This document shows, one piece after another, positions 4,395-49,160 of a stretch of 64,000 bases of DNA (positions are counted from its first letter, which is position 1; each line of letters starts with the position of its first letter). A model generated the notes under the pieces. That model was given only the letters and a program-made list of their open reading frames with translations, ran no database searches and had not been told where the DNA came from. Source of the stretch: Clostridia bacterium (lineage in GTDB: Bacteria > Bacillota > Clostridia > UMGS1883); assembly GCA_045604905.1 (NCBI GenBank), contig JAZUOX010000061.1, positions 1,987 to 65,986 on the forward strand, written 5' to 3'. A program made the translations under genes and the position numbers.

Positions 4395-7300
4395 TTACTT
4401 GCTTGCTCTTTCAACGAGTTCAGCATACTTAGCCTTAGCTGTTTCTGCTGCCTTAGCGAAGAGTTCTTTTGCTCTGTCGGGGTTAGAACGAGCAAGTGAG
4501 TTGTAACGAACTTCGTTCATAAGGAATTCTTCGTAGCTTTCTGTAGGCTCCTTAGAATCAAGCTGGAAGGGATTGAGACCTTCTGCTGTTCTTCTGGGGT
4601 CGAAACGGAAGAGGTGCCAGTAACCAGCCTGTACAGCACGCTTTTCTTCTGTCTGAGCAATGCTCATACCGCCCTTGATACCGTGGTTGATACAGGGAGC
4701 GTATGCGATAACGATTGAAGGACCGTTGTAAGAACCTGCTTCAACGAATGCCTTGATACACTGGTTGTTGTCAGCACCCTGAGCAACCTGTGCAACGTAT
4801 ACATAGCCATAGCTCATAGCGATAGCTGCAAGGTCTTTCTTCTTAACTTCCTTACCTGCTGCTGCGAACTTAGCAATAGCACCTGTAGGTGTAGCCTTTG
4901 AAGACTGACCGCCTGTGTTAGAGTAAACTTCTGTATCGAATACAAGGATGTTTACATCTTCACCGCTAGCGAGTACGTGGTCAAGACCGCCGTAACCGAT
5001 ATCGTATGCCCAACCGTCACCACCGAGAATCCATACAGATTTCTTGGAAAGATATTCCTTATCCTTAAGGATTTCAGCAGCTTCAGGTGTGTTCATCTTA
5101 GCAAGAACTTCCATAAGTTCTTCTGCTGCAACCTTGTTAGCATTTACATCTTCCTTAGTTTCAAGGAACTTGTCAATAACTGCCTTAGCTGCATCGTCAG
5201 CTGTTTCCTTAACAGCTTCTACCTTTGTAACAAGGTCTTCACGAAGAGTATTCTGAGCAAGGAACATACCAAAGCCGTACTCTGCGTTATCTTCGAAGAG
5301 TGAGTTAGCCCAAGCGGGACCTTCACCCTTAGCGTTTGTTGTGTAAGGTGTTGAGGGTGAGCTACCGCCCCAGATTGAAGAACAACCTGTTGCGTTTGCA
5401 ATGTACATCTTATCACCGTAAAGCTGTGTAACGAGCTTAGCGTAAGGTGTTTCACCACAACCTGCACAAGCGCCTGAGAACTCGAGGAGGGGCTGCTTGA
5501 ACTGGCTGCCCTTAACTGTTGTAGGCTTGAACTTCTCAAGAACTTCTGCCTTTTCGGGAATCTTGATACCGTAATCGAAGAATGCCTGCTTGTCTTCCTG
5601 AGTTTCAAGAGGCTGCATAACAAGAGCCTTCTCGCCCTTCTTACCGGGACATACGTTTGCACAAGATCCGCAACCTGTACAGTCAAGTACAGATACAGCC
5701 ATTGCAAAGTAAAGACCGTTAAGACCTGTCATATTGATATACTTGATACCCTCGGGAGCATTCTTTGCTTCCTCTTCTGTAAGAACTACAGGACGGATAC
5801 AAGCGTGAGGACAAACATAAGAACAGAAGTTACACTGGATACAGTTTTCACTCTTCCATTCGGGAACGTCGATAGCGATGCCTCTCTTTTCAAATGCAGA
5901 GCTACCCAACGGAACTTCACCGTCTGCATAAGGAACGAAAGCTGATACGGGAAGCTTCATACCTGCAAATGAGTTGATGGGATTAAGGATATTGTTGATG
6001 TAGTCAACAAGCTTACCTTCACCGTCAAACTTAACAGAAAGATCTTCGTCCTTAGCATCCTTCCATGAAGCAGGAACGTCAACCTTGATAACTCGCTGAG
6101 CACCCATGTCGATAGCGTCATGGTTCATCTTAACAATTGCTTCACCCTTCTTTGAGTAAGAAGCTGTAGCAGCGTCCTTCATATACTGAATTGCATCTGC
6201 TGCAGGAATGATGTTAGCAAGCTTGAAGAATGCTGACTGAAGTACAGTGTTGATTCTGTTGCCAAGACCGATTTCCTTACCGATCTGAACACCGTCGATT
6301 ACATAGAACTGAACGTCGTTCTCTGCAATGTAACGCTTAACCTGTCCGGGGATGTGAGCTTCAAACTCTTCAGCCTTAGTCCAGGGGCAGTTAAGAAGGA
6401 ATACACCGCCGGGCTTAACGTCAGAAACCATATCGTACTTTCTGATGTAAGAAGCCTTGTGACAAGCAACGAAGTCAGCCTTGTTTACGAGGTATGTGCT
6501 TGTAATCTTAGCATTACCGAAACGAAGGTGAGAAACTGTAAGACCGCCTGACTTCTTTGAGTCATAGTCAAAGTAAGCCTGAACGTTCATATCAGTGTGG
6601 TCACCGATAATCTTTACAGAGTTCTTGTTAGCACCAACAGTACCGTCAGCACCAAGACCCCAGAACTTACAGCTTGTTGTACCTGCAGGAGTTGTGTCGG
6701 GGTTTTCTGTAATCTGAAGTGATGTAAATGTTACATCATCATTGATACCAATTGTAAATCTCTTCTTATCAGCGTTGTTATAAACAGCGATAATCTGAGC
6801 AGGAGTTGTATCCTTTGAACCGAGACCGTAACGTCCGCCAAAGATTTCAACATCCTTGAACTGGCTGTCACGGAGAGCCGCAACAACGTCAAGGTAAAGA
6901 GGCTCACCAATGCTACCGCATTCCTTAGTTCTGTCGAGAACGCTGATTCTCTTAACAGAAGCAGGGATAGCATCGATAAGGTGCTTAGCGCTGAAGGGTC
7001 TGTAAAGTCTAACCTTGATAAGACCAACCTTTGCGCCCTTAGCGTTGAGGTAATCAACTGTTTCCTGAATAGTATCACAAGCACTACCCATTGCAACGAT
7101 TACATGTTCTGCATCAGCTGCACCGTAGTAGTTGAAGAGCTTGTAATCTGTACCGATTTCTGCATTAACCTTGTCCATATAAGCCTGGCAAAGTTCGGGA
7201 ACTGCATCATAGAACTTGTTGTTAGCTTCCTTTGCCTGGAAGAAAACGTCAGGGTTCTGAGCTGTACCGCGCTGTGCAGGATGGTAGGGGTTAAGAGAGC

Positions 7301-14436: not shown

Positions 14437-14476
14437 GAGATGCAAAAAAAGCCCAGACCGCATTTTTCCTATCCCC
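14437..14476 (+). repeat. Ends-only mini copy of the structured repeat element (left end joined directly to right end)
   Basis: AGAGATGCAAAAAAAGCCCAGACCG matches the left end of copy A (GGGAATGTTAAAAATGCCCAGAACG) at 18 of 25 positions without gaps. CATTTTTCCTATCCCC matches the right end (CATTTTTTCCTATTCCC) at 15 of 16 positions with one T deleted. It starts 4 nt after the stop codon at 14431-14433. Confidence 0.5.
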
Positions 14477-39539: not shown

Positions 39540-40892
39540 ATGAAACTAATTTACGGGGTTAAAGACAAACCCAAATTCGGACAGCTTATTATTTTCGCTA
39601 TCCAGCAGCTTCATGCAATTATGACAGCAACACTTGTTGTTCCTGTTATAATCGGTAACGAAATGAGTCCTGCCGCAGCTCTTGTAGGTGCAGGTGTAGG
39701 TACTCTTTTCTATGTGCTTTGCACAAAAGCTAAGAGTCCCGTTTTCCTGGGATCTTCATTTGCTTTTATCGGCTCAATGTTTGCAGCATTTGCAGGCGGT
39801 GTATCAATGTCTCTCGGTTATCTCGGTCTTATCATTGGTGCTCTTCTTGCAGGTCTTGTTTATGTAGTTATCGCAATCATCGTTAAGTTTGCCGGTGTAA
39901 AATGGATTAACAAGCTTATGCCCGCTGCAGTTATCGGACCCACAGTTGCAATTATCGGTCTTTCACTTGCTGGTAATGCAATCGGTGACCTTACAAAGGG
40001 TAGTATTCCTGATGTTCAGGCTTCACCATTGATTACAGTTCTTTGCGGTCTTGTTACTCTTATAACCACTATCGCATGCTCTGTATACGGTAAAAAGATG
40101 GGCAAACTTATCCCCTTTATCTTTGGTATTCTCGGCGGTTATGCAGTTTCACTTATATTCACACTTATCGGCAATGCATACGGCATTGATGCTATCAGAG
40201 TCCTCAATCTCGAGCCTCTCAAGGCACTTTTTGCAGGCGGTGTTACTCTCAACACATTCTTCTCAGTGCCTGACTTTACATTCCTGACTGCAATGGGCGG
40301 ATTCAAAGAACTTTCTGCTTCATATATCAGCACAATAGCTGTTGCATATATTCCTGTTGCATTCGTTGTATTTGCTGAGCACATTGCAGACCACAAGAAC
40401 ATTTCCTCCATCATCGAAAAAGACCTTCTTGAAGATCCCGGTCTTCACAGAACACTTATCGGTGACGGTATCGGCTCATTCCTTGGTTCCATATTCGGTG
40501 GTTGCCCCAATACAACTTACGGTGAATCTGTAGGATGTGTTGCTATCACAAAGAATGCTTCTGTTTATACAATCATCACAGCCGCTGTTCTTGCAATCAT
40601 CATTGCTTTCATTTCGCCCTTTATCGCATTTGTTAACTCTATCCCTTCTTGCGTAATGGGTGGAGTATGTATGGCTCTGTACGGCTTTATTGCGGTATCA
40701 GGTCTTAAGATGGTTCAGAGTGTTAACCTCAACCTTAACAAGAATCTCTTCGTTGTTTCAACAATTCTTATTGCAGGTATCGGTGGTCTTACGCTTAACT
40801 TTGGCAAAATCACTATTACATCAGTTGCATGCGCTTTAATTCTCGGTATAATCGTTAATATACTTGTATCAAAAGCGTCTGACCAGGAGTAA
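39540..40892 (+). CDS. Uracil/xanthine permease (NCS2 family)
   Basis: This 450-aa polytopic protein begins ...[14 protein letters not shown] and contains ...TYGESVG... It lies directly upstream of upp. Its RBS is AAGGAGG. Confidence 0.9.
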
Positions 40893-40911
40893 TCTTAAAG
40901 GAGACATCATA

Positions 40912-41541
40912 ATGAAAAACGTGACAATATTTGACCATCCGCTGATTCAACATAAAACAACTATATTAAGACAGACAACAACTTCAAACAAGGAATTTCG
41001 TGAGCTTGTTGAGGAAATCACAATGCTTATGTGTTTTGAAGCGCTTCGCGATCTTCCCCTTGAAGAAGTTGAAATTGAGACACCTCTTACAAAGACCACA
41101 CAAAAGATGATTAAGGGCAAAAAGCTTGCCGTTGTTCCGATTCTTCGTGCAGGTCTTGGTATGGTAAACGGTTTGCTTGACCTTGTTCCATCTGCAAAGG
41201 TTGGCCACATCGGTATGTACCGTGATGAGGAAACTATGATTCCTCATCCCTACTACTGCAAGCTTCCGGCAGATATTGACAAGCGTCTTATTGTTGTTGT
41301 TGACCCTATGCTTGCTACAGGCGGTTCGGCAATTGATGCTATTACCCAGATAAAGAAATCAGGCGGAACACAGATCAAGTTCCTGTGCTTGATTGCTGCT
41401 CCCGAAGGTATTGAGGCGCTTACAAAGGCACATCCCGATGTTGAAGTTTACTGCGCAAACGTGGATGAATGTCTTAATGAAAAGTGCTATATAGTACCAG
41501 GTCTTGGAGATGCCGGGGACAGAATTTTCGGCACAAAATAG
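40912..41541 (+). CDS. upp: Uracil phosphoribosyltransferase
   Basis: [20 protein letters not shown]...[11 protein letters not shown]... is the Upp pattern. The ATG at 40912 follows AAAGGAG. The ORF-track start at 40864 is too long. Confidence 0.95.
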
Positions 41542-41632
41542 TCGGGAATGTTAAAAATGCCCAGAACGTAAAAGGCATAAAAGTATAATAGATAAAAGCA
41601 TCACAAAAAATGAAATTTTTATGTCTGTTGAA

Positions 41633-41661
41633 GGGAATCGCACCAATGTGTGATTCCCTTT
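41633..41661 (+). repeat. 29-nt hairpin direct repeat, unit 1 (inside copy A)
   Basis: GGGAATCGCACCAATGTGTGATTCCCTTT is identical to 42004-42032. It is an 11-bp stem with one G-U pair on the plus strand. Confidence 0.9.
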
Positions 41662-41783
41662 CAGCGTGTCGATAAACCTATCGGCACGCTGGCAGACATC
41701 GAAAAAGGAAGGTAAATTTGTTCAACACGAACTCGTCGGCGTATGTGGATACGGTAGAGGGCGTGTTGGACGAAAATAAGCAG

Positions 41784-41818
41784 AAAACGGCTATAAACTG
41801 CGGGTTATAGCCGTTTTT
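41784..41818. terminator. Bidirectional terminator-like hairpin inside copy A
   Basis: AAAACGGCTATAA-actgcggg-TTATAGCCGTTTTT. Confidence 0.65.
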
Positions 41819-42003
41819 ATTAAATAAAGTTTTCTGCATAACACCTCATCCGAGTTGCTTCGCAACCCACCTTTTCCTCTCGGAGACGAGCCCCTTTTGT
41901 CAGCTTTGCAGACATTTCCCCCGACACGGGGGAATTTTCCTCAGAGGGGAAGGCGTTATTTTTATTCTCTGCTTATGGTTGACCGACTTTTTCGACAGTC
42001 TGA

Positions 42004-42032
42004 GGGAATCGCACCAATGTGTGATTCCCTTT
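42004..42032 (+). repeat. 29-nt hairpin direct repeat, unit 2 (inside copy A)
   Basis: Identical to 41633-41661 and followed by GTTTTT. Confidence 0.9.
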
Positions 42033-42173
42033 GTTTTTAAGCCTTTTATTACGAACAAACCTCACCTCTCGCTGTATCCACATACAGCTTCGGGTTTCCC
42101 CTTCGGGGTTCAGTTTGTCCGTTCTGAACATTTTTTCCTATTCCCGTTTATTAGCAAAAGAATTCTTTTTTTA

Positions 42174-42230: not shown

Positions 42231-44762
42231 ATGGATATCCGCGAGTTTAAAAATACATATAAAGAATTTTCTCCCTCCCTAATATGGGACTGGTGCGCAA
42301 AACCCACACCTGAGGAAATTGATTTTAAGCTTTCTTCATTTTCTTATATGGGGATTAAAAGTGTATACATTCGCCCGTCAAAGGGTCTTGCTACCCCCTA
42401 TCTTTCCGAAGATTATTTTGAGCTTATCCGCACTGCCGCAAGAAGAAGCGCACGCTACGGTATAGATATATGGGTTTTTGACGAAAATGCATCTGCAAGC
42501 GGAATCGGTGGCGGTGAAATTACCAGCGTTGACGATTACAGGCTCCGTGATTTTATAAAGGTAAACAAAACAGATATAGAAAAAACCGACGACATCTTAG
42601 CGGAAGATAATTCTTCTGCTCTGGTGCTTCGCGATATATCCGCTCTCCGAGCATCTACCCGTAACCCTATTGCCAACATTACCGACAGCTTTGTTTCAAA
42701 GTGCTTTTCCGAGGAAGTGTATGACCGCTACATCCGCGGATGCAAACGATTCATCGGATATGAAATTAAAGGCATTGTTTCAGGAATTAATTTGCCTGAT
42801 GACAGCACCATATATTCTCCTGAGGTATTCAGACGTCTTGACAACCCAGATAAAGCAAAATACGGCAAAAAGCTTCTTTCTAAAGATAAAGAAACATTGT
42901 CGTCATACTACGGCACTGTCAGTGACTGCATCAGAGAAAATTTCGTGTCACTTCTCCGTAAAAAATGCGGTGACAATAATCTTTCTCTTTCCGTATCTGT
43001 ATGCGGAAAAAGCGTCCTTTCACGTCAGAAGCAGTATATGGAAGCTGACAGTATTGTCCTCTATGCTGATGCGAAGAACCATGATATTATGGAATTCAAG
43101 CTGGCTGAATCAATAAGCTCACAGTTTAATAAACCCTTTACCGTATATCTTTCAACAGGAAAATTTGCGTCTGCAGCAATGCGGTTTAACAAAGCGGCAA
43201 AGCTTTGCGCTATGGGTGCACAGGCTGTTTCTTACAACAGTGTGGCATTCTCCCTTACAGACAGAAGAAAGTATGAGGATAATTCCCTTGTTCTCTCATC
43301 ATCCTCTGAAAAGGATATATCTGGCAGAATGTCAAGATTTTCTAAAGTTACATCTGAAACGAAATCCGCTGCAGATGTTCTTATTGTTTATTCACCCGAA
43401 AGCTATGATTTCTTCTCTGAATTATGCGAGCATTTTACTTCTCAGAACATTCAGTTTCACATAACAGAAAAGGATATATTCACATCGTTTTCAAAATGTG
43501 CTGACGGCAAAATCACAGTTGGTGAAAACGTCTACAACACTGTCGTTTATGAAAAAAATACAGTGGCATTGCCCGATGCATTTTCAGGTAAATCAATCGC
43601 ACTTGACACAACTCTTTCACCAAAAAACTGTAACATTACAGTGGACAGTACATCAACCTTGATAAGTGGTGATAAGGATTTTACCGTTAACCGCAGAAAA
43701 GATGGTGCAAACGAATATATATATATTACTACAACAAAGGGTGACACGGAAATCACCGTTTCGAATCTTACAAAAAAGCTTTTTGCTGCAGACAGTTCGA
43801 ATGGAGAAATTTACGAAATTCCCGAAACAGACAGTGTATGCAAATTTATTCTGAAAAACAATAAAACGGTACTTCTCATAGTTTCGGATGAATTTAATTA
43901 TGACATAATTCCTCCTTACACCGATGAGATTAAGCTCACCTATGGCGAAAAGGTATGTGATGTTCCCTTTGCCCTTTCGTCCGCAGGGGAAAATATTCTG
44001 CCCCTTAAGACGGTTAATGCCTGCTTTGGCAGAAAGGCGTACCGAGAAAATAACATTGATAATCTTCATAAGGAATTTTACGCTCTTCCCGACGGCGAAA
44101 CTGTAAAAGTAAAATATCCTTTTACCGCACATAAGGATAAAATCGGAACAGTTAAAGCATATTTTGAATATGCTGATAATTTTGATTTTGTTGAGCTTAA
44201 CGGAATAAGGCTTGAAAACCTTACACAAGCCGAAAACGACCCCAGATTTTTCGGTACTGATATTACCGAATATATTGCAGATGGCAAGAACACCCTTGCA
44301 GTAGAATATAAAAAGTGCAATAACTACACCCCCGATTTTAAGAGTTTCACTCCGTTGCATCTTTATTCTTTCAATACTACAAGCTTTGAGCCTGTATACC
44401 TTTCAGGAGATTTTGATGTTGACGGTGAAACAATTACACAGCTTGATGAATACACAAATGATGTAACTGAGTGCGGTATGCCCTATTACTACGGTGCTAT
44501 TACATACGTTGCTAAGCTTCCGGAAGACGGACTTTCCGGCACACTTCTTACCGTTCACGGCAATTTTGATATTTGCCGTATTAAAATCGGCAAGCGTGAG
44601 CTTACGTTCTATTCGGAAGTTCCCGAAACTGAACTTTTCAACCTTGACAGCGGAACTGTTGCGGAAATAACAGTGTTTAATACTCCCTACAACCTGCTTC
44701 GCACAACAGAGGAAAAGGCAAAACCCTTCGGTATTGAAAAAATAGAAATAATATCTCAATAA
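42231..44762 (+). CDS. Glycoside-hydrolase-like protein (N-terminal TIM-barrel-like region plus C-terminal beta-sandwich/jelly-roll regions); specificity unknown
   Basis: The N-terminal pattern ...WDW...TPEEID..L..F.YMGIKSVYIRPSKGL..PYLSEDYFELIR.AA..S..YGIDIWVFDE...SG..GG resembles uncharacterised GH-like families. The ATG at 42231 follows GAGGT. Confidence 0.6.
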   Translation: MDIREFKNTYKEFSPSLIWDWCAKPTPEEIDFKLSSFSYMGIKSVYIRPSKGLATPYLSEDYFELIRTAARRSARYGIDIWVFDENASASGIGGGEITSVDDYRLRDFIKVNKTDIEKTDDILAEDNSSALVLRDISALRASTRNPIANITDSFVSKCFSEEVYDRYIRGCKRFIGYEIKGIVSGINLPDDSTIYSPEVFRRLDNPDKAKYGKKLLSKDKETLSSYYGTVSDCIRENFVSLLRKKCGDNNLSLSVSVCGKSVLSRQKQYMEADSIVLYADAKNHDIMEFKLAESISSQFNKPFTVYLSTGKFASAAMRFNKAAKLCAMGAQAVSYNSVAFSLTDRRKYEDNSLVLSSSSEKDISGRMSRFSKVTSETKSAADVLIVYSPESYDFFSELCEHFTSQNIQFHITEKDIFTSFSKCADGKITVGENVYNTVVYEKNTVALPDAFSGKSIALDTTLSPKNCNITVDSTSTLISGDKDFTVNRRKDGANEYIYITTTKGDTEITVSNLTKKLFAADSSNGEIYEIPETDSVCKFILKNNKTVLLIVSDEFNYDIIPPYTDEIKLTYGEKVCDVPFALSSAGENILPLKTVNACFGRKAYRENNIDNLHKEFYALPDGETVKVKYPFTAHKDKIGTVKAYFEYADNFDFVELNGIRLENLTQAENDPRFFGTDITEYIADGKNTLAVEYKKCNNYTPDFKSFTPLHLYSFNTTSFEPVYLSGDFDVDGETITQLDEYTNDVTECGMPYYYGAITYVAKLPEDGLSGTLLTVHGNFDICRIKIGKRELTFYSEVPETELFNLDSGTVAEITVFNTPYNLLRTTEEKAKPFGIEKIEIISQ

Positions 44763-44801
44763 CACAAAAACTCTGTACGATTTCGTACAGAGTTTTTGTG
44801 T
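44762..44801. terminator. Bidirectional intrinsic terminator between the two convergent cassette genes
   Basis: ACACAAAAACTCTGTACGA-tt-TCGTACAGAGTTTTTGTGT is a perfect 19-bp stem. Confidence 0.85.
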
Positions 44802-45721
44802 TATTTATCTAATTCGTAAATTCTTATAGCATTCTCTCTTGCTATCTTATTAAATACGGTTTCTGTAATTCTTCCTGTATCACGCCATTCAACAAGAAGG
44901 TCACCGATTTCAACGGGATGCTGATTATTAACCATATCAGTACCGTACATAAGTCTGTCCTGGAACTCCGTCAGGAACTTCGCACCGAAATCAGGATCTC
45001 GTGTAAGTGCCATATATGGGGTACCGTCGGAAAGGTCACCGTAAAGATTCGGGTAATTGCGCATAAGATGCACCATTGCCCCCTCCTCCTCGATAGGACC
45101 TGTAGGAGGTTTTATAAGCATCCAATGATGGGTGTTGGAATATATTTTTCCGCGGCTGCCCGTAGTTTTAAGTCTGCCGATTTCTGCCCAGAATACAGGT
45201 CCATGTCCCATAATTTTAAGGTCGGGGAATTTCTGCAGAGTATGTTCAAGCTGCGGAAGACCGGGGTCGTCATAAAGACCGAAGTCGCCGTATTTCTGGT
45301 CAGAGCCGTCATAAGTTACGGGAAGACCTACCTTCTCCGCACATTTGAAAAGATTCTGCACAAGGGGATCCATAAGTTCAAGATTAGGCATAACCTCACC
45401 AAGACCTTTACACCCCTTGTCCTTATAATATGAAAGCACCCAGTCAAGCGGAGCATCTGCACGATTTGTGAGCATACGGGGGTCAACATTACAAAATGCA
45501 AAAAGTCTGTCAGGGTATTGTTCTACCATTTCAAGAACCTCTTCATTGGTCTGGGGAGAGTAAACCTCCGGACTAACAATGGGAAGCACTGCACCCTTTT
45601 CAATTCCAAGCTCGTCATAGCGTGCTATAAGTTCTTCCGCTGTACAGAAATTCCTGTCCACATTCCATGGTTTCGGAAAAGGTTTTACACGGTACGCGTG
45701 AGCATGTATATCAATAAACAT
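44801..45721 (-). CDS. Amidohydrolase-2 family (TIM-barrel metal-dependent hydrolase)
   Basis: MFIDIHAHAY... carries the HxH metal site. Other features are ...GCKGLGEV..., ...MGHGP... and ...YGTD... Confidence 0.8.
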   Translation of the reverse strand: MFIDIHAHAYRVKPFPKPWNVDRNFCTAEELIARYDELGIEKGAVLPIVSPEVYSPQTNEEVLEMVEQYPDRLFAFCNVDPRMLTNRADAPLDWVLSYYKDKGCKGLGEVMPNLELMDPLVQNLFKCAEKVGLPVTYDGSDQKYGDFGLYDDPGLPQLEHTLQKFPDLKIMGHGPVFWAEIGRLKTTGSRGKIYSNTHHWMLIKPPTGPIEEEGAMVHLMRNYPNLYGDLSDGTPYMALTRDPDFGAKFLTEFQDRLMYGTDMVNNQHPVEIGDLLVEWRDTGRITETVFNKIARENAIRIYELDK

Positions 45722-45836: not shown

Positions 45837-46269
45837 GGGAATAGGAAAAAATGTTCTGAACGGACAAACGGAACTGCGGCATGCCGCAGGTTACCCGACG
45901 GTGTACAAAACCCGGGCCCCGTTCAGAGTGGTAGCGTAAGCGTGCTCTGAATGGGAGAGGAGCAACCAAGCGACTGCGTCGATATTTGCAAAGCAAATAC
46001 GACTAAAGCGTTAGTTGCGACGACCGAGAGGTGACGTTGGTTCGTAACAAAAGGCATAACAAAAAAGAAGCGTGCCGCTTCACCCATGTCGCGCACCTGC
46101 AAATGTCTAACATAGCTTCACGCGAATAAAATTACGCAAATTCCTATACGGCAAAAAAGAAAAGCCGTGCAACACGGCTTTTCAACTGAAAACGAAATAT
46201 TTATGCTTTTAGCACCAGCTGTACATTATTTTTTTGCCTTTTGTGTTCAGGGCATTTTTAACATTCCCC
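45837..46269 (-). repeat. Structured non-coding repeat element, copy B (433 nt), inverted relative to copy A
   Basis: The plus strand reads GGGAATAGGAAAAAATGTTCTGAACGGACAAAC...GTTCAGGGCATTTTTAACATTCCCC. It ends 3 nt before the stop codon of the minus-strand oxidoreductase gene. It shares blocks with copy A and has many hairpins. Confidence 0.8.
46164..46178. terminator. Terminator-like hairpin inside copy B
   Basis: GCCGTG-caa-CACGGC is flanked by AAAAAAGAAAA and TTTT. It occupies the same position in the element as the 29-nt hairpin of copy A, but has an unrelated stem sequence. Confidence 0.6.
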
Positions 46270-46272
46270 GAA

Positions 46273-47325
46273 TTACTCATCAAAGCCCATACCCCTAAGG
46301 TCTGCAACTACATTGAACTTTTCTGCATCATACATCTTCCAGATAACCTGAAGGCTCTTCATTGCAGTTCTGCCGTCAGTATCGGGTGTCTTATCATTTA
46401 AGATACAGTCAACAAAGTGTCTGATTTCAAACTGTGTCATTTTACCAACTGCAGTGTCATCCTTCCAGATTACTTTGTAACCTGTTCCTTCTTCTGCCCC
46501 GACATTATGTGCGTGATTCTGATTGTAGAGCTGAATTTCACCGTTGGGACGGTCATAACGAAGAAGACCCTTTTCACACATAATCTGGCAATCCCAACCC
46601 ATACGTGTACCGACTGCATTCCAGGTTGCACCGTGGTAACCGAGAGCACCGCTTTCGAACTTGAAGCTTGCAACACTTGTGCTTTCACGAAGAAGGAGGT
46701 TATCGCCAACCTTTGAGCCGAAGTGTGTACCTGCAACGGGTTTACCCAGGAACCAGAGGAGAACATCTACATAGTGGCAACCGTGGCTGAAGAACTGACC
46801 GCCACCAAGTCTTGCTGTGTTACCCCAGCCTGTTTCATCAAGACCTTTTGTAAGCTGTTCTGTCCAGATAGACATCTGTATAACCTTACCGTATTCACCG
46901 CTGTCAACCAATTCCTTAAGTTTAACCATACCGGGCCAGTGACGAACGGGATATGCACACATAAGCTTAACATTTTCTTCTTCACATATTTCGATAAGAC
47001 GAAGGCACTCTTCCTCTGTATTACAAAGAGGCTTTTCCATGAGAACGTGCTTACCGTTTCTTGCAAAGAACACACCACATTCATAGTGCAAATCGTGAGG
47101 AAGTGCAACTAAAACTGCATCAACATAATTAGTCATTGTCTTCCAGTCTGTTGTTATGTAGGGATTTTCAATACCCCCTTCAAGTGCAGCCGCAAGGTTC
47201 TCTGCATTTTCACGGATAATATCGCAAAATGCAGTAACCTCTACATTTTCAACGTGCTGAATGCCTGCAATATGGCTTGCCATCATTTTACCGCAACCGA
47301 TTATACCAAATCTTATTTTTTTCAT
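46273..47325 (-). CDS. Gfo/Idh/MocA-family oxidoreductase
   Basis: The N-terminal Rossmann motif reads FGIIGCGKMMASH. The family motif ...EKP... is present. The protein is 350 aa. Confidence 0.88.
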   Translation of the reverse strand: MKKIRFGIIGCGKMMASHIAGIQHVENVEVTAFCDIIRENAENLAAALEGGIENPYITTDWKTMTNYVDAVLVALPHDLHYECGVFFARNGKHVLMEKPLCNTEEECLRLIEICEEENVKLMCAYPVRHWPGMVKLKELVDSGEYGKVIQMSIWTEQLTKGLDETGWGNTARLGGGQFFSHGCHYVDVLLWFLGKPVAGTHFGSKVGDNLLLRESTSVASFKFESGALGYHGATWNAVGTRMGWDCQIMCEKGLLRYDRPNGEIQLYNQNHAHNVGAEEGTGYKVIWKDDTAVGKMTQFEIRHFVDCILNDKTPDTDGRTAMKSLQVIWKMYDAEKFNVVADLRGMGFDE

Positions 47326-47454
47326 TTTTTTGACTTCCTTTCTTTACATCTTGCTATCGGTGATGTATACTTTACTTGTATTATAACAGTTGTGTTTTGT
47401 TTTTCCATACACAAAAAGACAATAAATTTACAAATTCTGTTCGGAGTGTAAGTG

Positions 47455-48327
47455 ATGGGTATTCGTGCAAAAACCTACATAAACGACCTTGTATCGGTGG
47501 ATTCCATTGTTACAGTTTATTATCTCAGAATGACAGGCGGCGGCACAAGCGGTGACTCCCATGACTTTTGGGAGTTTCAGTATGTTGATAAGGGAGCTTA
47601 CAACATTATGGTTGACGGCAAACGCTTTGACCTTTCGGAAGGGCAGTTTATTCTGTTCCCTCCCAATGCGCACCACTATGGCACCGGTGAAAAGTATAAT
47701 GCACAGATTGGTATCGTCAGCTTCGAATCCTCCTCCCCTGCACTTTTTGAAAATCATTCCAAAGTAATTACACTTTCAAAAGCAGAAAAGGAACTTCTTT
47801 CACAAATAATTACGGTCGGTGTGGATATATTTATCCCTGCTTCTCCGGAATCGGGGCTTGTGGGACTTGTTCCACATAAAGATACTCCTCCGGCAGAGCT
47901 TGCGAAATTAAAGCACAGGCTTGAAATGTTTCTGACAGAAATCTGCATAAACAGTGAATATAACAAGGGAGCAGCACTTGGGACTAACAAGTCAAACTAT
48001 GTAAAAACACAGTTTGAGGAAATTGAAAACTTTCTGAAAAGTAACCTCGACAAAAATCTTACCCTTGCGGATATATGCCGTGAATTTTCAATCAGCACAT
48101 CAAAAATAAAACTGCTTTTTAAAGAGGAATGCGACTTAAGCCCTATCGCCTATTTCACCTTCTTGAAAATCAAAAAGGCAAAACAACTTATCCGTGAATC
48201 AAGTCTTAACTTTACACAGATATCAGAGTCCCTGGGTTTTACTTATGTACATTATTTTTCAAAGGTATTTAAAGAAAAAACAGGAATGACACCATCTGAA
48301 TACGCTAAATCGATTTTTAAAAAATAA
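47455..48327 (+). CDS. AraC-family transcriptional regulator (cupin-type sensor domain plus HTH)
   Basis: The C-terminal HTH reads ...LADICREFSISTSKIKLLFK...ISESLGFTYVHYFSKVFKEKTGMTPSEY. It is transcribed divergently from the oxidoreductase gene. Confidence 0.88.
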   Translation: MGIRAKTYINDLVSVDSIVTVYYLRMTGGGTSGDSHDFWEFQYVDKGAYNIMVDGKRFDLSEGQFILFPPNAHHYGTGEKYNAQIGIVSFESSSPALFENHSKVITLSKAEKELLSQIITVGVDIFIPASPESGLVGLVPHKDTPPAELAKLKHRLEMFLTEICINSEYNKGAALGTNKSNYVKTQFEEIENFLKSNLDKNLTLADICREFSISTSKIKLLFKEECDLSPIAYFTFLKIKKAKQLIRESSLNFTQISESLGFTYVHYFSKVFKEKTGMTPSEYAKSIFKK

Positions 48328-48357
48328 ATGCAGAAATTTTCTGCATTTATTTTTTTA
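48326..48357 (+). terminator. Intrinsic terminator after the AraC gene
   Basis: AAATGCAGAAA-t-TTTCTGCATTT followed by ATTTTTTT. Confidence 0.75.
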
Positions 48358-48410
48358 TTTAACCGCTATTTAACTTTAATGCTCTATGATATATCCTAGG
48401 AGGTGCATAG

Positions 48411-49160
48411 ATGGCAATAGAAGTATTTAACAGATATGAACACAAATATCTGCTTGACAAAGAAACCTTTGAAAAAGTAATAAAATCGCTGGATGAACAT
48501 ATGGATATGGACTCTCACAACAAAAACCATATTCCCTACACTATAGCTAATATATACTTTGATACTCCGGATGATTTCCTTATAAGAACATCTTTGTCAA
48601 GACCTGCTTACAAAGAAAAATTGCGACTTCGTTCATACGGCGTGCCTGATAGAGATTCGACGGTATTTCTTGAGATAAAAAAGAAATTCAAAGGCATTGT
48701 AAACAAACGTAGAACCCAGTTAACCCTTGACGAGGCTTATAAATTCATTTCGTCGGGAAAAGCTCCCGAGCCAAAAGAATTTATGAACACACAAGTGCTA
48801 CACGAGCTTGAATATTTTATGAAAATATATGATTTGTTTCCAAAGCTCTACTTGGCATACGACAGAATTGCATATTTTGAAAAAAGCAATAAAGATTTAA
48901 GAATTTCTTTTGATATGAATATACGGTCAAGAAGATATGATTTAGCACTGGAAAAGGGTGACTACGGAGAAAAGCTGCTTCCTGACAATGTCTATCTTAT
49001 GGAAATCAAAACTGCTCTTGCAAAGCCTCTGTGGCTCACGCATATGCTGACAGGGCTTGATATAAAGCGCAGAAGTTTTTCCAAATACGGTACGGAATTC
49101 AAAAATTTTGTAAACCAGACAAAATGTAAAGGAGTAGTTTTAAATGAACAGTTTATTTAA
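48411..49160 (+). CDS. VTC-domain (polyphosphate polymerase / CYTH-like tunnel) protein
   Basis: The N-terminus ...FNRYEHKYLL... and ...IANIYFDTPD...RSYG...FLEIKKK fit the VTC-domain pattern. Confidence 0.8.
   Translation: MAIEVFNRYEHKYLLDKETFEKVIKSLDEHMDMDSHNKNHIPYTIANIYFDTPDDFLIRTSLSRPAYKEKLRLRSYGVPDRDSTVFLEIKKKFKGIVNKRRTQLTLDEAYKFISSGKAPEPKEFMNTQVLHELEYFMKIYDLFPKLYLAYDRIAYFEKSNKDLRISFDMNIRSRRYDLALEKGDYGEKLLPDNVYLMEIKTALAKPLWLTHMLTGLDIKRRSFSKYGTEFKNFVNQTKCKGVVLNEQFI

Follow-up and report, generated by a model that had tools for sequence, protein, structure and literature searches.

What is the structured element that follows the upp gene in a 64,000-nt stretch of DNA from a Clostridia bacterium (GenBank assembly GCA_045604905.1, contig JAZUOX010000061.1, positions 1,987 to 65,986; the window hereafter), is it an RNA of this locus, and on which of its strands does it fold? 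The first copy, copy A (41544-42145, 602 nt), has the same orientation as upp (40864..41541, +) and starts 2 nt past the upp stop codon (41539-41541). The second, copy B (45837-46268, 432 nt), is inverted relative to copy A and begins 4 nt past the stop codon (46273-46275) of a gene for a GFO/IDH/MocA oxidoreductase (46273..47325, −). Each end motif occurs exactly twice in the window, against about zero expected occurrences, and the two copies have in common three blocks at the 5′ end, in the middle and at the 3′ end (42, 43 and 38 nt, 86-95% identity), the interiors between these blocks being unrelated. Covariance model (CM) R1 scores 114.4 bits on the minus strand of copy A and 40.5 bits on the plus strand of copy B. 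Both copies are members of a previously undescribed family of structured repeats and not a locus-specific regulator, and this family is probably a multi-copy, non-coding repeat of uncultured gut and rumen Clostridia, similar to MITEs (miniature inverted-repeat transposable elements).

A multi-copy family of gut Clostridia

Relatives were collected by two scans. The first took one genome per species and searched for the first arm of the element by a degenerate pattern; it returned 33 stretches, about 20 of them true copies, with up to 4 per metagenome-assembled genome (MAG). The MAGs with true copies stem from gut samples of yak, goat, deer and the like, and all bear the labels Clostridia, Oscillospiraceae or Lachnospiraceae. 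The second, on metagenomes, had as its pattern two conserved junction strands, being independent of the helices P1, P2, P3 and P5 described below, and returned 107 stretches, human-gut assemblies among them. A profile search of the 0.95 Mb of fetched sequence gave 136 core matches, and 69 complete elements were extracted (loci carry L numbers below), the smallest of 143 nt (L003), most of 205-260 nt and the largest being copy A. Among more than 100 relatives, the hosts are only uncultured Clostridia of the ruminant and human gut.

The unit of the family is about 140-260 nt long and multi-copy, the 430-600 nt of copies A and B being an accident of insertions. A discrete RNA of about 430-600 nt at this locus, as proposed in an earlier sequence-only reading of the window, does not fit a unit of this size, which moreover is decayed, replaced or absent at orthologous sites. 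The traits found are of the MITE type: a size of 143-602 nt, several copies (two in the window) and no conserved reading frame within the element. A coding element was rejected also at the level of single copies, as no conserved frame starts at the ATG of the antisense arm, the frame being closed by a stop at codon 3 in copy B and the ATG itself being missing from many members. A viral origin was rejected as well, the 3′-end pattern being missing from viral contigs and blastn of a typical full-length member against plasmid and phage collections giving no match. Over the whole window, Rfam 15 gives no match at the gathering score, and around the copies, on both strands and with E up to 10, nothing over the conserved core of A or B, the only overlap with copy A being two weak matches, at E of 1.2 and 4, whose families are eukaryotic and unrelated. 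No tRNA or tmRNA was found in the window, and no description of the repeat family was found in the literature.

Architecture and covariation

The ends of the element are imperfect inverted repeats of about 24 nt, GGGRATGTWAAAAA..CAGAAC and an imperfect complement, which are conserved, covary and pair as the closing helix P1. The interior consists of a variable arm, P2, which accepts insertions and bears a hairpin that resembles a terminator of the upstream gene, and of a conserved core of about 110 nt, in which a conserved junction, a hairpin P4 and, optionally, a hairpin P5 are enclosed by helix P3. From an alignment of 63 non-redundant members (A2), RNAalifold gives a consensus of 45 pairs, corresponding to P1 outer, P1 inner, P3 (around P5, three invariant C-G pairs and P4) and P2. 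In these pairs 95.9% of the cells are standard and 35 of the 45 show double-sided changes; none of 500 column shuffles matched the alignment on any of five measures, and sliding the 3′ partners by 1-3 columns brings pairing down to 35-48%. The fold is kept by compensatory changes. The closed architecture, with P1 enclosing the P2 arm and a P3 domain with variable hairpins, had been put forward from copies A and B, together with a call for a covariation analysis of homologs, and it is the covariation of the whole family that now supports it.

The sequences assigned earlier to P1, P2 and P3 are all present at their coordinates in both copies. Also, the joint flip of the W position of P1, CAGAAC/GTTCTG in copy A versus CTGAAC/GTTCAG in copy B, is real and recurs across the family, where this pair is AU in 50 members, GC in 10 and UA in 2. 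The same is observed for the U-A to C-G change in P2, all 10 pairs of which covary, and in A and B the P5 hairpins are unrelated in sequence, like the interiors between the common blocks. Other assignments stood in part. The segments of P1 and P3 form real helices, but the third P1 segment (42121-42126) and P3 (42113-42122) share 2 nt, and in the consensus structure the "AC" of CAGAAC is part of P3 and not of P1. P3 itself is present, although with an A.C mismatch on the strand first assumed and, in copy B, one further mismatch. The invariance of the junction strands in the metagenome set stems from the search pattern, which fixed two unpaired junction strands; in the genome-scan set they vary slightly and are still well conserved.

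The fold lies antisense to the upstream gene

The fold had been assigned, tentatively, to the gene-sense strand. This call is reversed by wobble pairs, loop motifs and folding energy, which place the folded core on the antisense strand. When both strands are folded, a check proposed with the original assignment, the minimum free energy is lower for the reverse complement, antisense to the upstream gene, in 15 of 16 members of the genome set and in 49 of 51 of the metagenome set, with a mean difference of 10.8 kcal/mol. Among the consensus-pair cells on the antisense strand, 187 are G.U and 30 are A.C, the latter being G.U on the sense strand, and this bias is located in P1 inner (93 versus 4), P3 (56 versus 7) and P4 (18 versus 2), the P2 stem (10 versus 11) and the P2 interior being neutral. 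The P5 hairpins are better folded on the antisense strand in 47 of 50 members, and they correspond to near-independent replicates because the P5 sequence differs between copies. Their loops on this strand include 4 GNRA, 4 CUUG and 10 C(GNA)G motifs, 18 in total, against none on the sense strand. For the minimal element L003, the folding energy is −80.5 kcal/mol (z −11.8) antisense versus −61.5 kcal/mol sense, and for the core and 3′ arm of copy A (42035-42145) it is −35.1 kcal/mol (z −5.5) on the minus strand versus −26.1 kcal/mol (z −3.6) on the plus strand.

The whole of copy A is among the few exceptions to this preference, because of an insertion of about 371 nt. The plus-strand hairpins with G-U pairs on which the sense assignment had leaned do exist in copy A, but all of them lie in or at the edge of this insertion, outside the architecture of the family. 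One of them, GTTCAACACG/CGTGTTGGAC, is the P3 helix of a weak degenerate core that the covariance model detects inside the insertion at 41694-41787 (+), with 19.2 bits and an E of 0.03, and it is likely that a nested, inverted and degenerate member of the family is contained there. Selection for folding on the antisense strand only would require a single-stranded form of the bottom strand.

Position after stop codons and composition of the flanks

In the genome set, the stop codon of a same-strand open reading frame (ORF) stands 0-12 nt before the first arm in all 16 members, and the downstream gene has either orientation. In the larger set, the element starts within 7 nt past a same-strand stop codon in 41 of 60 cases and within 40 nt in 48 of 60, and at the far end a converging ORF ends within 7 nt in 2 of 62. 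Among the exceptions to stop-codon adjacency are tandem copies, a tRNA gene (L079) and the start of a divergent gene (L107). In L079, the first arm of the element (6401-6617) is 8 nt from the 5′ end of an opposite-strand tRNA gene, with the folding strand co-oriented with this gene and just upstream of it. The upstream genes include recA, mreB, those for class II fructose-bisphosphate aldolase (fba), RNase Y (rny), uracil-DNA glycosylase (udg), isocitrate dehydrogenase (icd), an SPFH protein and altronate dehydratase, as well as trkH, upp, the GFO-family gene and a phage capsid gene; a functional theme was sought and rejected, these genes being unrelated. The capsid case is L038, where the element (1474-1725) follows a phage major-capsid-like gene (Pfam Phage_capsid_3/4), prophage-like DNA being also a host. 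The strand of replication was discarded as the cause of the orientation, given that copies A and B are inverted within 4.7 kb, each after its own upstream gene, and the same is found in L027.

Both flanks are A-rich on the sense strand. In the 9 nt that follow the element on the antisense strand there are 4.9 T on average, with at least 5 T in 41 of 67 members, versus 2.0 T and 4 of 67 on the sense strand. Also, many elements have a palindromic, terminator-like hairpin, GGGNNTGTAAAAAA..TTTTTTACANNCCC, up to about 10 nt past the far end; examples are found in L025 (2593-2623), L053 (406-438) and L004 (7308-7336), the arms of the hairpin resembling the first arm of the element. No sigma-70-like promoter was found at a fixed distance on the folding strand, a match of 9 of 12 positions within 100 nt being present in 8 of 67 members and scattered.

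Turnover at orthologous sites

Gain and loss of copies are both seen in the family, as are truncation, probable nesting, tandem arrangement and an exchange of parts among copies. For example, L124 has a 234-nt element between two genes, and in L044 the same genes are separated by 7 nt from stop codon to next start codon. L130 has a plain terminator at the site where L075 has an element, and L137 keeps a 14-nt remnant of the first arm and a terminator where L029 has the full element. Tandem copies are found in L004, L050 and L062.

The site behind upp shows several of these states (identities are relative to the upp of the window). L141, with 99% identity in the Upp protein, has a complete element of 249 nt with different P4 and P5. 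L125 and L027 are both 87% identical in the last 300 nt of the upp DNA; the former has a complete element of 226 nt whose core is 95.5% identical to that of copy A, and in the latter the first arm is replaced and the core kept. The core is deleted in L142 (98%, protein) and L144 (92%, protein), and L143 (96%, protein) has a simple terminator and no element. At the other site of the window, the expansion that copy B carries in P4 is shared with element L031, located elsewhere in the L027 genome, but is missing from the L027 ortholog of copy B.

Flanking direct repeats of at least 6 nt with no more than one mismatch are present in 11 of 67 members, whereas shuffled flank pairs give 5.2 ± 2.0 with a maximum of 10 in 300. 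These repeats are A-rich and of 6-8 nt, and the clearest, GTAAAAA (L065) and TAGAAAA (L111), include the stop codon.

Mobile repeat or functional RNA

A non-autonomous mobile repeat fits the multi-copy spread, the inverted-repeat ends, the presence and absence of copies, their mosaic, nested, tandem and decayed states, the lack of relation among host genes, the surplus of short A-rich duplications and the missing promoter. Such a family would spread, or would once have spread, in trans via an enzyme that was not found. Insertion would take place into the A-run between the stop codon and the native terminator, with duplication of about 7 bp, and the inserted element would be carried in the 3′ untranslated region, where its internal hairpin could end the upstream transcript. 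In this mechanism, selection for the fold would act on the single-stranded bottom strand, either as single-stranded DNA during mobilization or as a transcript.

Several points weigh against a mobile repeat. Direct repeats give a modest, A-rich signal and are missing from most copies, copy A included. No autonomous partner with the same ends, encoding a transposase or a reverse transcriptase, was found in the 0.95 Mb of fetched loci, and autonomous long versions, sought as partner arms up to 4 kb away and as inverted ends around an ORF, were rejected because chance matches only were obtained. The orthologous cores of A, L125 and L027 are 95-97% identical and the adjacent upp coding sequence 87-91%, and this higher conservation could be the result of selection in place. 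As a proof of function, however, it is weakened by L141, where P4 and P5 differ beside a Upp protein of 99% identity, and by the core deletions in L142 and L144. Moreover, conserved unpaired junction nucleotides and a strand-specific fold are features of functional RNAs more often than of transposon ends, and a classical cut-and-paste transposase explains neither folding on one strand nor insertion oriented by the gene. The ends of the element may have some likeness to the inverted repeats of the IS6/IS26 family.

The serious rival to a mobile repeat is a functional non-coding RNA on the bottom strand, which we regard as unlikely without being negligible. In this case a family of RNAs of about 200 nt with paired ends and a cellular role would be transcribed toward the 3′ end of the upstream gene, ending at P1 and a U-rich tract, the latter in overlap with the stop-codon complement. 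Such RNAs might target the 3′ end of the upstream mRNA or block antisense transcription into the gene. The fold, the wobble pairs and the GNRA and CUUG loops are all on the strand that such an RNA would occupy, the T-rich tract after P1 (at least 5 T in 41 of 67 members, versus 4 of 67 on the sense strand) is where it would end, the junction has conserved nucleotides, conservation in the cores of A, L125 and L027 exceeds that of the upp coding sequence beside them, and a few loci have a co-oriented gene or tRNA just downstream (L107, L079). Nonetheless, no promoter is found at a consistent distance, the operon of L124 leaves 27 nt only from the element to the next start codon, and a terminator-like palindrome often stands immediately upstream on the antisense strand. 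In addition, the core is deleted or absent at the orthologous sites of close relatives (L142, L144, L143), and the upstream genes share no functional theme.

A bacterial retroposon similar to a short interspersed nuclear element, or another element mobilized as a single strand, appears improbable. Its bottom-strand RNA would be the mobile intermediate, ending in its own P1 helix and a U-tract, and the U tail would pair with the A-run after stop codons and serve as primer for a sense-strand copy. Such a scheme would account for the fixed orientation relative to genes, the junction TAAAAA|GGGGAT, the A-rich duplications and the selection for an antisense-only fold, but a reverse transcriptase with the same ends was not found in the fetched loci.

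The model of the sequence-only reading, an RNA of the sense strand in the 3′ untranslated region closed by P1, is the least supported reading and very unlikely. As the element lies 0-7 nt past the stop codon, sense transcription is sure to run through it, and a ribosome that terminates there would cover the first arm; in the sense direction the internal hairpin and U-tract terminate better, and P2 and its interior have no strand bias. However, where the antisense strand has G.U pairs the sense strand has C.A or A.C mismatches (187 versus 30 cells), its folding energy is weaker in 49 of 51 members and it bears no stable loop motifs, and an internal terminator lies between the two P1 strands, so that most sense transcripts would lose the 3′ half. 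The attC sites of integrons start at the upstream gene's stop codon or past it and have a bottom-strand fold, a conserved structure and a variable centre, and by analogy a recombination site of folded single-stranded DNA could be envisaged from the position, the strand, the conservation of structure over sequence and the variable centre found here, but this too is very unlikely, since the helix ends lack RYYYAAC/GTTRRRY core sites, the conserved cores have no Rfam match at E up to 10, there is no nearby integrase, the copies are single, scattered after housekeeping genes, not in arrays and, in the window, mutually inverted, and the empty site of L044 keeps the upstream gene, which thus does not travel with the element as one cassette.

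Comparison with known structured repeats

As a MITE-like structured repeat, the family would belong to a class comparable to that of bcr1, BOX and SPRITE, and consistent evidence sets it apart from them by a branched core with conserved junction strands and by selection for an antisense-only fold. In the Bacillus cereus group, bcr1 (about 155 bp) keeps its fold by compensatory changes, read as acting at the RNA level, and like the present family it is a small interspersed non-coding repeat of Firmicutes, patchy between close strains; bcr1 also has short flanking direct repeats (PMC3184786). Unlike bcr1, with which no sequence similarity was seen, the elements described here are closed by a long helix and have a three-way core whose junction is conserved, an arm that takes insertions of 100-450 nt, a strict position after the stop codon and a predicted fold antisense to the host gene.

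BOX of Streptococcus pneumoniae (67-637 bp) is modular, MITE-like and without a transposase of its own, and shares with the present family conserved end modules, a variable middle and a comparable size range. However, its variable part is the repeated boxB module, whereas here it is unrelated sequence and a hairpin, and neither stop-codon adjacency nor a conserved multi-helix core is reported for BOX. The pneumococcal SPRITE, resembling a Rho-independent terminator, is similar in this terminator-like motif and in its bias to the 3′ ends of genes, but it is a hairpin in essence, of about 105 bp, and the present family adds a covarying core and an orientation to one gene only. REP and REPIN sequences with their RAYT partners are likewise extragenic palindromic repeats at gene ends that persist vertically, and they are thought to be handled as single-stranded DNA, hence in a strand-specific manner. 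They differ in being GC-rich hairpins of 20-40 nt, many with an end tag of the GTAG or CGTC type and associated with RAYT, the present elements being 5-10 times larger, branched and of at least 140 nt. No such tag was found in the present family, and the few flanking genes that were checked, in a search that was not exhaustive, included none similar to RAYT.

With this family, the uncultured Clostridia of gut and rumen gain their own counterpart of the structured repeats of the bcr1, BOX and REP type. Two of its traits are left unexplained by the usual transposon model, namely a branched core that covaries on one strand and a strictly oriented insertion near stop codons. The elements mark the ends of operons and, in core genes that include recA, mreB and fba, alter the terminators and 3′ untranslated regions, and metagenome screens will miscall them as candidate riboswitches or small RNAs. 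If the folding strand were an RNA or a single-stranded DNA intermediate, a new mechanism of mobilization would become directly testable.

Organization of copies A and B and of their neighborhood

Copy A (41544..42145) is delimited by the end motifs, the common blocks and CM R1 and has its conserved fold on the minus strand, upp being on the plus strand. Its closing-helix arm beside the stop codon, GGGAATGTTAAAAATGCCCAGAAC (41544..41567), pairs with the opposite arm GTTCTGAACATTTTTTCCTATTCCC (42121..42145), with covariation across the family in P1 outer and inner. The two P2 strands (41568..41576 and 42041..42049) are partners of each other. Between them, the ancestral P2 interior (41577..41661) aligns with that of the orthologous element in L141, has the first copy of the direct repeat D1 and ends with the hairpin GGGAATCGCAC..GTGTGATTCCC (41633-41658), in the place of the conserved terminator-like hairpin of the family. 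The copy A-specific insertion of about 371 nt follows (about 41662..42032, +); it is missing in L141 and has 45-nt direct repeats at its borders (41617-41661 and 41988-42032). It includes a terminator-like hairpin detected by the terminator scan (41784-41817), a second hairpin copy (42004-42029) and a 50-nt motif, ATAACACCTCATCCGAGTTGCTTCGCAACCCACC... (41836-41886). This motif is 90% identical to sequences in L069 (360-410) and L094 (3764-3812) that adjoin other elements, and it may be the end of a related subfamily. The conserved core (42050..42122, −), as placed by alignment to the covariance model, consists of P3 (42051-42061 with 42112-42122), P4 (42072-42087), P5 (42098-42108) and the junction strands 42062-42071 and 42088-42095.

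Copy B (45837..46268), defined by the same evidence, has its conserved fold on the plus strand, its upstream gene being on the minus strand, and its ortholog is the 233-nt element at 7058-7290 of L027. The closing-helix arm at 45837..45861 pairs with the arm beside the stop codon at 46245-46268, which together with the P2 strand 46235-46243 makes up the segment 46235..46268. The P5 hairpin, CTGCGGC AT GCCGCAG (45874..45889, +), is unrelated in sequence to that of copy A. In place of a simple P4 hairpin there is an expansion of about 125 nt (45901..46024, +), which is 91% identical over 111 nt to element L031, is missing from the ortholog in L027 and has a folding energy of −58.2 kcal/mol on the plus strand versus −50.8 kcal/mol on the minus strand. 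It is followed at 46025..46056 (+) by the junction strand CGAGAGGTGACG, the 3′ strand of P3 (46037-46045) and the P2 strand (46048-46056). The P2 interior (46057..46234) contains a terminator hairpin for the upstream gene (46159-46183, minus), detected by the terminator scan, and a small extra motif (46067-46096) that is present also in L027 (5915-5946). In this second small repeat a short GC hairpin precedes AYCCATGTCGC(G)CAC, and in L027 and L144 the repeat stands in place of the first arm in the element linked to upp.

A weak match to the first-arm profile at 14438-14463 (+) of the window, with an E of 0.0018 and no core nearby, may be a remnant or a chance match. A database look-up of the Upp, GFO-family and amidohydrolase proteins of the window recorded no identical gene. 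An AraC-family regulator and a VTC-domain protein (47452-49160) are encoded just past copy B, with no evident tie to the elements. Between a convergent ORF of about 843-849 amino acids and an amidohydrolase gene there is a perfect 23-bp inverted repeat with a 2-nt loop (44758-44805), which looks like a strong bidirectional terminator and is responsible for weak miRNA-like Rfam matches. This ORF (42231-44762, +), without a Pfam match, and the Amidohydro_2 gene (44801-45721, −) are bracketed by copies A and B, and the same layout is found in L027. Also, orthologs of the ORF of about 841-842 amino acids come after upp in L141, L142 and L144.

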